55,872 nucleotides of DNA from Patescibacteria group bacterium. Its GTDB lineage: Bacteria > Patescibacteriota > Patescibacteriia > Patescibacteriales > JAQTRU01. The translations under genes were made by a program, and so were the position numbers. The first letter of the stretch is position 1. Each line of letters opens with the position of its first letter. Below are positions 23,640-52,884 of the stretch, piece by piece. The notes under the pieces are model-generated. The model was given only the letters and a program-made list of their open reading frames with translations. It was not told the DNA's origin and did no database searches. The stretch lies in the NCBI GenBank assembly GCA_028711415.1, contig JAQTSG010000001.1, positions 1-55,872 on the forward strand. The letters are read 5' to 3'.

Positions 23640-23933
23640 TTAAAATGAATGAAGCTCTGCCTGATGGATTTTTTCCGGATATTTCTCGGCCTCTGCGGGG
23701 AGGTTAATATCAGCAAATCCGAGGATTTCCGCGGCTCGTTGAAAAGTACGAAGGATGTTTGCGTCAATGCGCGCTCGGTCGAAGTGAATTACCCCTGGGT
23801 TTCCCATGGTTGTTTCTATAAACCAGCAGATAAGAGCATCTCTTCGATTTTTTTCTTCCGATTTCCGGATAATTTTCACAATATCATCAACAATTTTGAT
23901 GAACTTTGGGTCTTCAAATTGGTTACCCGACAT
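23640..23933 (-). CDS. Orphan 97-aa protein encoded antisense inside the atp operon
   Basis: ATG 23933 preceded by AAGGAGAG 9 nt upstream; own promoter and terminator; no family recognised. Confidence 0.6.
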   Translation of the reverse strand: MSGNQFEDPKFIKIVDDIVKIIRKSEEKNRRDALICWFIETTMGNPGVIHFDRARIDANILRTFQRAAEILGFADINLPAEAEKYPEKIHQAELHSF

Positions 23934-24013
23934 GGTGGCACTCTCCTTTTCTAAGAAATGAACAAAGATATTATTGTTATCATGAATAAAAAATAGTTTA
24001 TTATTAATAAGAA

Positions 24014-24042
24014 AATATATCATAAGATTAATAATTTGTCAA
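24014..24042 (-). promoter_or_regulatory. Promoter TTGACA-17-TATATT on the minus strand
   Basis: Reverse complement of 24014-24042. Confidence 0.6.
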
Positions 24043-24062
24043 TTCTTAAAAATTAAAGATAA

Positions 24063-24120
24063 AAAATAGAAAATTAAAGATAGATCGCGTTATTTTTTAT
24101 ATTTTATTTTTTATTTTTAA
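24063..24120 (+). repeat. 58-nt AT-rich element immediately upstream of atpD (partner 50878-50935, inverted)
   Basis: 56/58 identity by eye to the reverse complement of 50878-50935. Confidence 0.85.
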
Positions 24121-24134
24121 ATTTATCTAAAAAT

Positions 24135-25517
24135 ATGTCTGATAAAAAAAACATTGGCACAATTAAGCAGGTTATCGGCGCGGTGGTTGATATCCATTTT
24201 GAGGATAACCTGCCGAAAATTTATACGGCTCTGGAAACTAAATTGCCGGACGGGAGAAAATTAATTATGGAAGTAGAGCAGCATATCGGTTTTAATGTAG
24301 TTAGGACCGTGGCCATGGGTTCAACCGACGGCTTAAAAAGAGGGGACGAAGTTACCAATACCGGCAAGGGCATTTCCGTGCCGGTCGGGGAAGAAACTTT
24401 GGGCCGGATTTTTAACGTTTTAGGCGAGCCGGTAGACGGAGGCCAGGAAGTAAAAACCGGGAAAAAATATGAGATTCACCGTCCGGCGCCGGAATTTACT
24501 GAACAATCAACTAATACGGAAATTTTAGAAACCGGCATTAAGGTTATTGATTTAATCTGCCCGATCGCCAAAGGCGGAAAAGTCGGCATGTTCGGCGGCG
24601 CTGGTGTCGGTAAGACCGTGGTTATCCAGGAATTCATCAATAATATTGCCAAAGCTCATGGCGGTTATTCGGTTTTTGCCGGAGTCGGGGAAAGAAGCCG
24701 CGAAGGCAATGACCTTTATAATGAAATGAAAGACGCGAAAGTCCTTGATAAATTAGCCATGGTTTTCGGCCAGATGAATGAACCGCCCGGCTGCCGCGCC
24801 CGCGTCGCTTTGACCGGCTTGTCCATTGCCGAATACTTCCGCGATGAAAAAAATCAGGACGTACTTTTCTTTATAGATAATATTTTTCGGTTCACGCAGG
24901 CCGGCTCCGAGGTTTCAACCCTACTTGGCCGGATGCCTTCAGCCGTCGGCTATCAGCCGACTTTAGCGACAGAAATGGGTGAATTGCAGGAAAGGATTAC
25001 TTCTACGAATAAGGGCTCAATTACTTCTATCCAGGCGATTTACGTTCCAGCTGATGACTTAACCGATCCGGCGCCGGCCACGACTTTCGGGCACCTTGAT
25101 TCAACCGTGGTGCTTTCCCGCAGCTTAACGGAATTGGGTATTTATCCGGCGGTTGACCCGCTTGATTCTTCTTCTACCATCCTTGACCCAAAAATAGTCG
25201 GGGAAAGGCACTATAAAGTCGCCCGCAACGTTCAGAAAGTTTTACAAAGATATAAGGACTTGCAGGATATTATTGCCATTCTTGGCATGGAAGAATTATC
25301 TGATGAGGATAAATTAACCGTGGTCCGGGCGAGAAAAATTCAGAGATTCCTGTCCCAGCCGTTTCACGTCGCCGAAACCTTTACTGGCCGGCCGGGTAAA
25401 TACGTAAAATTAGAAGACACTATCCGCGGCTTTGAGGAAATTTTAGAAGGCAAGCACGATGAGAGGAATGAAGGAGATTTTTATATGAAAGGCGGGATTG
25501 AAGAAGTTAGCAAATAA
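24135..25517 (+). CDS. atpD: F0F1 ATP synthase subunit beta
   Basis: GGAGVGKTV Walker A, DELSEED-like MEELSDEDK. Confidence 0.95.
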
Positions 25518-25525
25518 TTAGTCAA

Positions 25526-25610
25526 CTAGTTAAAAGTTTGTAAAGTTTATAAAGTTGAAAGTCCTCCTATTCGGACTTTATAACTTTTAACTTTATGACT
25601 TTATAACTAG
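25526..25610. repeat. AT-rich heptamer-word inverted repeat (AAGTTAT/ATAACTT word)
   Basis: CTAGTTAAAAGTTTGTAAAGTTTATAAAGTTGAAAGTCC ... GGACTTTATAACTTTTAACTTTATGACTTTATAACTAG. Confidence 0.85.
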
Positions 25611-25620
25611 CTGTTGAACT

Positions 25621-50623: not shown

Positions 50624-50643
50624 GTTGATTTTAGTTAGATTAA

Positions 50644-50862
50644 TTAAGCCGCTAATTCTTTTTTTTCTTCGTCCGGATTTTTTTCTTCGTCCAAGCCCGC
50701 CTCTTCAAGAGCTCTTTTTAGACTTGCCCGGGCCTCTGCGCCCTGCTTTCTTAACCCGGCCTCTCTGGCCGCTGCCAATCGTCTCTCTGCGTCAGGATTT
50801 TCTTTTTTAAACTCTGGTTTAACGCCAGGGCTGCCGAAACCAAGTTGTTCAAATTTTGGCAT
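50644..50862 (-). CDS. Hypothetical 72-aa charged protein
   Basis: Start set at MPKFEQ (50862) because the 58-nt element shared with the atpD upstream region ends at the same spacing from this ATG. Confidence 0.45.
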   Translation of the reverse strand: MPKFEQLGFGSPGVKPEFKKENPDAERRLAAAREAGLRKQGAEARASLKRALEEAGLDEEKNPDEEKKELAA

Positions 50863-50877
50863 ATTTTTCAAACAAAG

Positions 50878-50935
50878 TTAAAGATAAAAAATAAAATATA
50901 AAAAATAACGTGATCTATCTTTAATTTTCTATTTT
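50878..50935 (-). repeat. 58-nt AT-rich element (inverted partner of 24063-24120)
   Basis: Reverse complement matches 24063-24120 with 2 mismatches. Confidence 0.85.
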
Positions 50936-51028
50936 CTTTCTTTATTTTTTTAAGCGGTTCCATAACAATTTTAGGATTTGTCCCGCCCGCCCCGCTCCTG
51001 CGGTGGCCTTGGCCGGATTTCGCTTCGC

Positions 51029-52537
51029 TCAACTTTTCAATAATCTTTTAAGGATATCTATAACAATTTTCGGGTTGGCCTTGCCTTTTGTGGCTGACAT
51101 AACTTGCCCGACAAAAAATTGTAGGACATTTTCCTTGCCACGTCTATACTCTCTGGCCTGCTTTTCGTTTTTCGCTATTATAGATTTTACTATCTTTTCT
51201 AACTCGGCCTCATCATCAATCTGCTCTAATCCTAAATCAGCCATAATGTTGGTGGGATCGCCGCCCTTTTTATACATTATTTCCATTATTTTTTGAGCCG
51301 CCGTGGAGTTTATTTTATCTTGGTAAATAAGAGCAACAAGTTCAGCAAAGTTTTCCGGAGTGATTTTTACCTCGGTAATGGATTTTCCGTCTTTGTTAAG
51401 ATGCTTAAATAATTCGCTAAGAAGCCAATTGCCCGTAATCTTGGCCAGCTTATTTTTTTGCCTTTCCCAATCGTCTCCGGTTGAACATATCCAGGCCCGC
51501 AGTTCGGAAATTACTTTTTCCGTGTAGTCGGCTAAGTTTTTATCGCTTACCAAAATTTCCGCCGCGGCTTCGTCAAAATTATATTCGGCTTTAAAACGTT
51601 TCTTTTTCTCCGGCGGCAATTCAATTAATCCGGCTTTTATTTCTTCCAACCATTGCCCGCCAATTTTTATGGGCGGAATATCCGGCTCCGGAAAATAGCG
51701 GTAATCGGAAGAAGTTTCTTTTATTCTTTGCCTTACAGTCTTATTTTTATTTTCGTCCCAGCCCCGCGTTTCCTGGACTAATTTTTCTCCCGTCTCCAGG
51801 GCCTTAATCTGCCTTTTTATTTCATAATCAATAGCTTTTTCAATAGCGCGGAAAGAATTTATGTTTTTTAATTCCGCTTTTGGATTTAGCTTGTATTTGC
51901 CAATCGGTTTTATCTCGCAATTACCTTCGTATTTCCATTTGCCTTTTTCCTGCACGCTCACATTAGCTTCGCAGCGCATCTCGCCTTTTTCCATATCCGC
52001 GTTGGAGATATTTAAATAGCGAAGAATCTGCTGAAAAATCTGGCAGAATTTTTTCGCCTCGGTCGCGTCTTTAATTACCGGTTCGGTTACCATTTCAATT
52101 AAAGGGGTGCCGGCGCGGTTAAAATCAAGCAGAGTATAATTTTTTTCGGTTGGGTGTGTGGACTTTCCCGTATCTTCTTCTAAATGCAGGCGGGTTATTT
52201 TTATATCCCGATCATTAACTTCAAGATGCCCGCCGTAGCAGAAAGGCAGGTCATACTGGGAAATTTGGTAACCCTTGGGCAGGTCCGGGTAAAAATAATT
52301 TTTTCGGTCAAACTTAGAAAGCGTCCTTACTTTGCAGTTTAGAGCCAAACCAGCCAAAATCGCCCATTCTATGGCCTGCTTATTAGGAGTAGGCAGAGTG
52401 CCGGGATGGCCTAAGCAAATCGGGCAAACAGTCGTATTGGGTTTTTCCCCCAAAGAGTCATTATTACAGGAGCAGAACATTTTTGACTTGGTTTTTAGCT
52501 CGGCGTGAATTTCTAAGCCGATAATTACGTCGTACAT
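51029..52537 (-). CDS. gatB: Asp-tRNA(Asn)/Glu-tRNA(Gln) amidotransferase subunit B
   Basis: IGLEIHAEL, CPICLGHPGTLP motifs; C-terminal GatB/YqeY domain. Confidence 0.95.
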   Translation of the reverse strand: MYDVIIGLEIHAELKTKSKMFCSCNNDSLGEKPNTTVCPICLGHPGTLPTPNKQAIEWAILAGLALNCKVRTLSKFDRKNYFYPDLPKGYQISQYDLPFCYGGHLEVNDRDIKITRLHLEEDTGKSTHPTEKNYTLLDFNRAGTPLIEMVTEPVIKDATEAKKFCQIFQQILRYLNISNADMEKGEMRCEANVSVQEKGKWKYEGNCEIKPIGKYKLNPKAELKNINSFRAIEKAIDYEIKRQIKALETGEKLVQETRGWDENKNKTVRQRIKETSSDYRYFPEPDIPPIKIGGQWLEEIKAGLIELPPEKKKRFKAEYNFDEAAAEILVSDKNLADYTEKVISELRAWICSTGDDWERQKNKLAKITGNWLLSELFKHLNKDGKSITEVKITPENFAELVALIYQDKINSTAAQKIMEIMYKKGGDPTNIMADLGLEQIDDEAELEKIVKSIIAKNEKQAREYRRGKENVLQFFVGQVMSATKGKANPKIVIDILKRLLKS

Positions 52538-52650
52538 ATTTAAGTAATTGGTAATTTGTAATTAGAAATTTGGATTTGGATTTCTATGTTTATTTTATCG
52601 CTAAATGGCGGAAAAAGCAACCGGCGTTTGCCTAACCAAAATAATAATCA

Positions 52651-52685
52651 AAAAGCCGCATCAAATTCATAGATGCGGCCTTTTT
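52651..52685. terminator. Bidirectional terminator
   Basis: GCCGCATC-N9-GATGCGGC flanked by A-run and T-run. Confidence 0.75.
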
Positions 52686-52884
52686 AGAGGTGGGGCCAGC
52701 CAAAATCCCAGGCCCGGCTGACCGGAGTTCTGACAACGTAAGTATAAGAAGATTTTTCCCCGCAATCAGGACAAATAGATTCAATGGTAGAAGAAATTTT
52801 ACCATCAGCATGTTCACACCTGATTTTTGCGCTGTCCATTTGCGCTGGAAACGGTTTTTGGCAAGTTTCGCAGAAGATTTTCAT
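52684..52884 (-). CDS. Orphan 66-aa zinc-ribbon protein
   Basis: CETC ... CPDC pairs; GGGAGG 5 nt upstream of the ATG. Confidence 0.55.
   Translation of the reverse strand: MKIFCETCQKPFPAQMDSAKIRCEHADGKISSTIESICPDCGEKSSYTYVVRTPVSRAWDFGWPHL

Follow-up and report, generated by a model that had tools for sequence, protein, structure and literature searches.

Introduction

The 55,872-nucleotide (nt) window analysed here, contig JAQTSG010000001.1 of the Patescibacteria group bacterium assembly GCA_028711415.1 (order Patescibacteriales), raises the question of why housekeeping genes that have no Shine-Dalgarno (SD) sequence before their start codon stand beside small orphan genes that carry a strong one. 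We propose, with a probability of roughly three in four, that this lineage uses two modes of translation initiation and that SD-led starts mark a flexible, partly imported gene pool. Core genes would initiate independently of an SD sequence, at A/U-rich and weakly structured starts with A-rich sequence at -6 to -3 and a U at -1. The majority of the SD-led genes would belong to the flexible genome, partly as small cassettes of promoter, leader, SD sequence, open reading frame (ORF), and terminator, placed in gaps between or within conserved operons, and partly in larger, GC-richer islands, with both cassettes and islands differing between sister species. Imported genes would arrive with their own SD sequence and would keep it, since the SD-less route of the host would be closed to their GC-richer and more strongly structured starts. 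The literature searched yielded no account of Patescibacteria in which core and accessory genes differ in SD use.

SD frequency and gene conservation

The window is contig C9 of a metagenome-assembled genome (MAG) of 1.095 Mb in 68 contigs with a GC content of about 0.41, which is estimated to be 97% complete with 1.4% contamination; landfill metagenome runs contain the window DNA, and the search listed no RNA run. An earlier, sequence-only reading of the window had placed GGAGG-type sites before six orphan genes, and all six are present at the positions claimed, 4 to 9 nt from the ATG. It had also described the housekeeping starts as SD-less, which agrees with their duplex energies with the 16S rRNA tail (above -6 kcal/mol), murA excepted, where -8.6 kcal/mol is reached due to GGTGAT. 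The sequence upstream of the housekeeping genes is A/T-rich and pairs poorly with the 16S tail. Pfam confirms the identity of the eight atp genes, groES/EL, pcm, the manC-like gene, mltG, iscU, nifS, miaB, miaA, gatB, tmk-dut, murA, and adk. None of the 24 order-conserved genes in the window is SD-led, versus 6 of the 11 orphans (Fisher p = 2.8e-4). Three SD-like starts, at 49991 (-), 7347 (+), and 1716 (+), add to those listed earlier.

For the whole genome, genes were called with a dicodon log-odds model (n = 1040), the 18 nt upstream of each start were scored by their duplex energy with the 16S tail, and conservation classes were assigned by tblastn against a complete genome of the same genus (G002) and an order-level genome (G012). 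Far from being unrelated to conservation, SD presence rises as conservation falls. With refined starts, a strong SD sequence precedes 17 of 469 order-conserved genes (3.6%), 52 of 304 genes conserved only in the genus (17%), and 67 of 223 genes with no homologue in either relative (30%), an association with chi2 = 94 and p = 4e-21; longest-ORF starts give 3.4%, 12%, and 23%, respectively. Control windows at -75 to -57 and within genes yield 2 to 6% in every class, so the core genes carry SD sequences at chance rate. The same pipeline returns 2.5, 9.6, and 21.8% across the three classes in G002 and 1.1 versus 12.4% in G012. Judged by motif and energy together, with a true SD at 4 to 10 nt, 103 of the 1040 genes (about 10%) are SD-led.

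The split might be an artefact of contaminated or chimeric contigs, of bias in gene or start calling, or of chance G-rich motifs in GC-richer DNA. The 68 contigs and the contamination estimate would allow for this, some of the SD calls are in fact terminator hairpins, and start refinement raises the SD counts. However, the split persists with unrefined starts, where 84 of 991 genes reach -10 kcal/mol versus 20 to 29 in the control windows, and SD-like tetramers form a modest peak solely at -13 to -9. Both classes lie on the same contigs, with flanks collinear with an independent MAG on both sides, and the split is replicated in two other genomes. We regard an artefact as very improbable.

Start context of the SD-less genes

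Counted over all genes with their starts left unrefined, position -1 is a T in 66%; the core genes have a U at this position in 73% of cases in each of three genomes (the window genome, G002, and G012), whereas SD-led genes have it in only 36%. SD-less starts are in addition A-rich at -6 to -3. No other upstream position is conserved between orthologues as well as the U at -1 (0.88), whose frequency is 0.80 in genes at most 25 nt behind an upstream gene versus 0.78 in first genes; being equally common inside operons, it is therefore a translation signal rather than a transcription-start signal. Found before about three quarters of the SD-less starts in three genomes of the order, it makes up an unusually strong Kozak-like context. 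By pairing with A37 of the initiator tRNA, a U at -1 may extend the codon-anticodon pairing, and this could explain the strong preference as a candidate mechanism. The region from -30 to +30 folds with -4.8 kcal/mol in SD-less genes and -7.6 kcal/mol in SD-led genes (p = 3e-13). The genome encodes an S1 protein of 432 amino acids (aa) with four S1 domains.

Genomes with mixed initiation are known to gene finders, as in the groups of GeneMarkS-2, and leaderless genes occur together with SD-led genes in Actinobacteria and Deinococcus. The window genome resembles these in having two classes of start signal, but differs in that its SD-less class is mostly leadered. Leaderless transcription was considered as the main mode of the core genes and rejected, given that -10-like hexamers at -12 are in slight excess only (27 versus about 10 of 483) and the U at -1 is equally frequent within operons. 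The core genes are mostly not leaderless.

The anti-SD sequence and its probable use

The 16S rRNA of a same-genus relative and those of six of seven other relatives from the order end in GGATCACCTCCTTTCT, which is the canonical anti-SD. The 16S 3' end of G012 reads GGATTATCTCCTTTCT, with two C-to-U changes. Its accessory genes still carry the canonical AAGGAGGTG, which pairs by G-U wobble. Co-variation of SD sequences with this variant is uninformative, since GGAGGTG still pairs with it through the wobble. The survey of candidate phyla radiation (CPR) ribosomes by Tsurumaki et al. 2022 (PMC9297842) describes an anti-SD that varies among CPR bacteria, with CCTCCT in only 48% of Parcubacteria; that paper does not treat SD use by gene class, and in the order studied here the anti-SD is retained. 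Retention for prfB frameshifting was rejected as an explanation, as release factor 2 is encoded in an uninterrupted frame of 369 aa and the locus lacks CTTTGA.

SD status is inherited. Among 410 orthologue pairs between the window genome and G002 with aligned N-termini, 14 have an SD sequence on both sides, 15 and 5 on one side, and 376 on neither (odds ratio 70, p = 2e-14). GGAGG and its spacer are unchanged in pairs with only 41 to 51% protein identity; one example is cassette 7 of the window (see below), whose protein is 51% identical in G002, where CCGGGAGGAAACA-ATG is unchanged. The strongest SD sequences include those of native, order-conserved genes, namely rpsU, encoding bS21, and two pilin genes. 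The rpsU gene has GGAGGTG before a GTG start, at -15.9 kcal/mol, and keeps it in G002; its Pfam S21 score of 20.8 bits is below the cut-off of 27 bits, and PDB matches to S21 support the identification. A type IV pilin and a type IV secretion system pilin both have AGAGGGGAGGTGAAAT-ATG at -21 kcal/mol. The inheritance of SD status and the very strong SD sequences on native genes suggest that the site is probably read by the ribosome. The anti-SD would then be kept because the SD-led pool and a few native genes (bS21, the pilins) depend on it.

A retained anti-SD, housekeeping genes without SD sequences, an A-rich upstream context, and an exceptionally strong rpsU SD are also found in Bacteroidia, suggesting another explanation. 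There, in most ribosomes the anti-SD is hidden by bS21, bS18, and bS6, leaving them blind to SD sequences, and a subpopulation of ribosomes lacking bS21 reads SD-led mRNAs, so that the SD-led genes would be a co-regulated class and rpsU would autoregulate. The rpsU SD of the window genome fits the Bacteroidota signature of an extended SD pairing below -13 kcal/mol (McNutt et al. 2023, PMC9976891), and bS6 has a C-terminal extension of about 65 aa. The hallmark of the Bacteroidia protein is a less basic bS21 C-terminus with Tyr54 (Jha et al. 2020, PMC7797042), whereas the C-terminus here is strongly basic (K/R-rich), its best PDB matches are of the Firmicutes type, and the bS6 extension is K/E-rich with no evident Trp/Arg signature, the two proteins being judged from their own sequences. 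Furthermore, about 10% of the genes are SD-led, including the presumably abundant pilins, islands, and cassettes, and they track the flexible genome, unlike a class in which rpsU stands almost alone. The strong rpsU SD does not extend to all of the order, G012 having only AAAGG, and the dominant start signal is U at -1 as opposed to A at -3, -6, and further positions in Bacteroidia. Specialised ribosomes of the Bacteroidia type are thus an unlikely basis of the split.

Cassettes in the window

Seven units of the window each consist of a predicted promoter and a hairpin/T-run terminator around a single ORF. They are given below by feature.

24014..24042, minus strand: cassette 1, promoter-like site TTGACA-17-TATATT with TG extension, 11/12 matches
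23941..23948, minus strand: cassette 1, SD sequence AAGGAGAG, 7 nt before ATG 23933
23640..23933, minus strand: cassette 1, ORF of 97 aa with no family, antisense between atpG and atpD
23573..23606, minus strand: cassette 1, terminator (hairpin and T-run)
40027..40055, plus strand: cassette 2, promoter-like site TTGACT-17-TAAAAT with TG extension
40116..40120, plus strand: cassette 2, SD sequence GGAGG, 9 nt before ATG 40130
40130..41017, plus strand: cassette 2, ORF of 295 aa from a large uncharacterised family, conserved domain at residues ~108-270
~41034-41068, plus strand: cassette 2, hairpin terminator
41714-41685, minus strand: cassette 3, promoter
8 nt before ATG 41643, minus strand: cassette 3, SD sequence AAGGAG
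41161..41643, minus strand: cassette 3, ORF of 160 aa, phrog_420 (function undefined)
41113-41159, minus strand: cassette 3, terminator
41941..42028, plus strand: promoter-like TTGACA-17-TAGTAT, then hairpin and T-run, upstream of the 56-aa ORF of cassette 4
42109-42117, plus strand: cassette 4 (unit 42109..42292), SD sequence GGGGAGGAG, 4 nt before ATG 42122
42122-42292, plus strand: cassette 4, basic ORF of 56 aa
42324-42339, plus strand: cassette 4, terminator
47960..48550, minus strand: cassette 5, whole unit, between miaB and miaA
48550-48522, minus strand: cassette 5, promoter TTGACA-17-TATGGT with TG
6 nt before ATG 48447, minus strand: cassette 5, SD sequence AGGAGG
48007-48447, minus strand: cassette 5, ORF of a putative membrane protein of 146 aa
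47986-47960, minus strand: cassette 5, terminator
49521..50005, minus strand: cassette 6, whole unit, AAAGGA 8 nt before ATG 49991
49560-49991, minus strand: cassette 6, ORF of 143 aa with no family
49553-49521, minus strand: cassette 6, terminator
52650..52959, minus strand: cassette 7, whole unit, promoter TTGACA-17-TAAGAT at 52959-52931
5 nt before ATG 52884, minus strand: cassette 7, SD sequence GGGAGG
52684-52884, minus strand: cassette 7, zinc-ribbon-like ORF of 66 aa
52680-52650, minus strand: cassette 7, terminator

Near-consensus promoters had been claimed for four of the six orphans listed earlier, and TTGACA-17/18-TAnnnT-like sites are in fact found upstream of all six; hairpins with T-runs, which had been described for most of them, follow all six. 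That the orphans belong to no family stands for Pfam and fails for three of them, as the cassette 2 ORF has remote homologues, the cassette 3 ORF matches phrog_420, and the cassette 7 ORF is zinc-ribbon-like.

Cassette 1 interrupts the atp genes between those for the gamma and beta subunits. A copy is found on an unrelated ENA contig of 945 nt beside a GIY-YIG gene, with 79% protein identity to a homologue of likewise 97 aa and about 85% DNA identity, and the -35 box and the T-run of the terminator mark the exact limits of the similarity. The copy keeps AAAGGAGAG, and its terminator stem shows one compensatory base-pair change (C-G to T-A). The annotated start of a 127-aa protein, ATG 24023, lies inside the promoter spacer and upstream of the predicted transcription start, and a 7-nt leader indel in the homologous ENA copy rules out the longer ORF; the 127-aa annotation is probably wrong. 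GIY-YIG genes as mobilisers of the cassettes were rejected, their adjacency being not above background.

For cassette 2, the usable start is ATG 40130, where the annotated protein also begins, as ATG 40124 is merely 3 nt from the GGAGG. A full HMMER search with the 295-aa protein yields 351 remote clusters, including a Syntrophales MAG, while a word-indexed search returns only the protein itself. Pfam, a PDB profile search, and an AlphaFold model (pLDDT 78) with Foldseek gave no indication of its function. The homologue of the cassette 4 ORF in another relative, G003, is diverged and lies behind GGGAGGG with an apparent non-ATG start (ATT or TTG). The stretch before this ORF (41941-42053, plus strand) is 88% identical in G003, above the neighbouring coding DNA, and the ORF behind it has strongly diverged. 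An ESM Atlas search with the 146-aa membrane orphan of cassette 5 gave sub-threshold leads only.

The slots that hold the cassettes differ between relatives (G002 and, in further comparisons, G001, G003, and G004), as follows.

Between atpG and atpD: 695 nt here (23440-24134); 844 nt in G002, with an unrelated SD-led ORF; 50 nt in G001; genes adjacent in G004
Between nifS and the 660-aa gene: 2430 nt here, with three cassettes; 1842 nt in G002, with another SD-led ORF of 275 aa and a copy of cassette 3 at 45% identity; in a further relative (G001 or another), 626 nt with an SD-less nuclease-like gene
Between miaB and miaA: 723 nt here, with cassette 5; 33 nt in G002
Between miaA and the 119-aa gene: the 143-aa orphan of cassette 6 here; an SD-led aspartate-carbamoyltransferase-like gene in G002; an SD-less gene in G001

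Since atpG and atpD are adjacent in relatives, cassette 1 is an insertion into the operon, and because this antisense cassette splits the operon, atpD needs its own promoter or read-through.

Phage "morons" are autonomous promoter-gene-terminator units between conserved genes. The window cassettes are similar in being self-contained, with their own promoter and terminator, in lying between conserved genes, in their variable presence, and in their atypical composition. They differ in being located on a cellular chromosome and not a prophage, with flanks (atp, mia, gat, nifS) that are collinear with relatives, and in being set apart also by their mode of translation initiation. Integron cassettes are promoterless and associated with attC sites and an integrase, while those of the window are scattered and have their own promoters, arguing against integrons.

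Composition, islands, and probable lateral origin of the SD-led genes

Across the genome, SD-led genes have a GC content of 0.45 versus 0.41 (p = 7e-16) and, within the accessory classes, of 0.46 versus 0.39. They are shorter, their coding scores are less native-like, and their GC content lies 5 points above that of neighbouring genes with no SD sequence (+0.05, p = 1e-10). They are also clustered, with 22 adjacent SD-SD pairs versus 9.4 +/- 2.8 expected. On either side of the SD-led segments, both in the window and in contigs C24, C41, C58, and C26, lie core genes that are collinear with those of G002, and the islands are therefore not contamination. They encode PurC, PurB, PurN, an FGAM-synthase-like protein, PyrF, acetate kinase, and a radical SAM enzyme, and also OmpA, Por_Secre_tail, and DUF5018 surface proteins.

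The GC-rich SD-led island at 23.5-33 kb of contig C24 contains OmpA-like, Por_Secre_tail (a sorting domain of the type IX secretion system), DUF5018, and GHL15 proteins, families of outer-membrane or FCB-group type that are unexpected in Patescibacteria. Its flanks are collinear core genes, and the G002 slot has counterparts with 35 to 40% identity.

The SD-led purC has a GC content of 0.57, and its product is 79% identical to the G002 orthologue and 76% identical to a Latescibacterota protein, for a median identity of core proteins within the order of about 49%. The Latescibacterota purC contig has a GC content of 0.56-0.59, with GGGAGGAG before the start. In the proposed reading, at least some SD-led units were acquired laterally from SD-using, GC-richer donors. 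The sequence-only reading had suggested that the orphans are foreign, derived from phages or plasmids, or laterally acquired: lateral acquisition is supported by the GC contrast, the slot differences, the occurrence of cassette 1 elsewhere, and purC, and the phage or plasmid origin is not. Its alternative, a separately regulated expression class, may also apply. That the window orphans stem from phages or defence systems was rejected, as phrog_420 of undefined function is the single PHROG match, PADLOC gives no defence match, and no integrase was seen. As for mobility boundaries, the window has no tRNA gene, and no integrase or transposase is found among the Pfam-scanned orphan and backbone ORFs (a partial check genome-wide). 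With their atypical composition and a homologue outside the lineage, the SD-led segments resemble horizontally acquired islands, the donor having been tested for purC alone.

The SD-led genes might also be a native, lineage-specific class of fast-evolving surface and accessory genes that kept an ancestral SD while the core lost it. This agrees with the inheritance of SD status within the genus, with the SD-led native pilins and bS21, and with the signal-like N-termini of 27 of the 103 SD-led proteins. However, the enrichment of such N-termini (26% versus 17%) vanishes within conservation classes, by which we also rejected the SD as a mark of secreted proteins or lipoproteins. The 5-point GC difference to neighbouring genes, presence and absence at identical slots, insertion into the atp operon, and a purC almost as near to Latescibacterota as to the same-genus orthologue all speak against a native class, which we consider improbable.

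Strength of the two-mode reading

Several points weigh against two initiation modes with a flexible SD-led pool. About 70% of the least-conserved class is SD-less and AT-rich, so that the SD marks part of the accessory genome and not the whole; the bS21 and pilin genes furthermore show that it is not confined to acquired genes. A donor was identified for one gene only (purC), and most window orphans have no homologues able to date or source them. The ORFs at 48007-48447 and 49560-49991 are putative genes with no independent support, and the use of the promoters, SD sequences, and ORFs is inferred. The SD core is conserved over its flanks as a trend only (66 versus 58%, p = 0.09, 17 pairs). The 16S rRNA is unassembled in the MAG, and the anti-SD was taken from the same-genus relative. 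Gene calls and starts come from a simple in-house caller, and several G-rich hairpins scored as false SD sequences. The conservation classes are based on two relatives, one of which, G012, has a reduced genome that lacks even the ATP synthase genes, so that the genus-only class mixes housekeeping and accessory genes.

Other features of the window

The conserved backbone around the cassettes, together with a further promoter-to-terminator unit and a fusion gene, is made up as follows.

18688..26058, plus strand: ATP synthase a, c, b, delta, alpha, gamma, then beta and epsilon, all SD-less (Pfam; duplex above -6 kcal/mol)
26439..28448, plus strand: groES-groEL, SD-less (Pfam, upstream sequence)
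28609..39928, plus strand: SD-less backbone of DUF5667 protein, pcm, manC-like, mltG/YceG, L,D-transpeptidase, iscU, metallo-beta-lactamase fold, and nifS, with a CAP-domain gene on the minus strand
35911-36315, plus strand: Rrf2/IscR-like regulator, upstream of the isc genes
42359..55685: SD-less backbone around cassettes 5 to 7, with 660-aa membrane protein, PMT_2 glycosyltransferase, miaB, miaA, gatB, tmk-dut fusion, and adk
50042..50215, minus strand: conserved promoter-to-terminator unit, TTGACA-17-TATACT, 11/12 matches
52962-54116, minus strand: fusion of thymidylate kinase and dUTPase, 384 aa

Nine consecutive G stand before the Rrf2/IscR-like gene; they are not a canonical SD and score as a strong anti-SD partner.

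The unit at 50042-50215 may be a small RNA. Its predicted transcript of about 140 nt combines a perfect terminator with an interrupted stem of 18 bp, in which an SD-like GAGGUGA is paired with UCACCUU. The unit is 85 to 87% identical in three species of the genus, above the neighbouring coding DNA, and a comparison of the three reveals no compensatory change. The conservation ends with the T-run, and the variable slot starts there. The window, this unit included, gave no match in Rfam and tRNA scans.

The same palindrome of 14 to 16 bp (GGGGTTCGACCCCC ... GGGGGTCGAACCCC) occurs at 49114-49152 inside the miaA frame and at 39952-39987 after nifS, the latter copy being a bidirectional terminator, and a matching stretch is found in the miaA of G002. 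The in-frame copy is reminiscent of Rickettsia, where palindromic elements have entered genes without breaking the reading frame. The miaB frame contains A-rich tandem repeats (AAAGTC x5, AAATCC x4, and AAATTC x3, at 47023-47054, 47303-47358, and 47705-47741), some between and some within Pfam domains, with dozens of 80 to 100% matches in G003; they are simple-sequence DNA tolerated in coding regions.

Implications

If the split holds, it would provide a natural system for studying the expression of acquired genes under a different initiation route of the host, and one for asking about specialised ribosomes outside Bacteroidia. It would also raise the question of how promoter-to-terminator cassettes insert, even into the atp operon, without recognisable mobility genes. 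A bolder extension, which we hold to be doubtful, is that the initiation mode is a built-in partition of core and flexible genes across the lineage, with SD pairing set aside for imported or fast-turnover cassettes and a few native genes (bS21, the pilins). In this partition, bS21 occupancy (ribosome composition) or an RNA regulator could raise or lower the whole flexible pool at once, and the cassettes would move as discrete promoter-to-terminator units by a novel mechanism.

In practice, start signals by themselves would suffice to tell the core genes of a Patescibacteria MAG from its acquired or flexible ones, and gene finders with a single ribosome binding site model would mis-start one of the two classes. 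For the biology of these bacteria, the split would help to explain why the anti-SD is kept in lineages whose housekeeping genes have no SD sequence.

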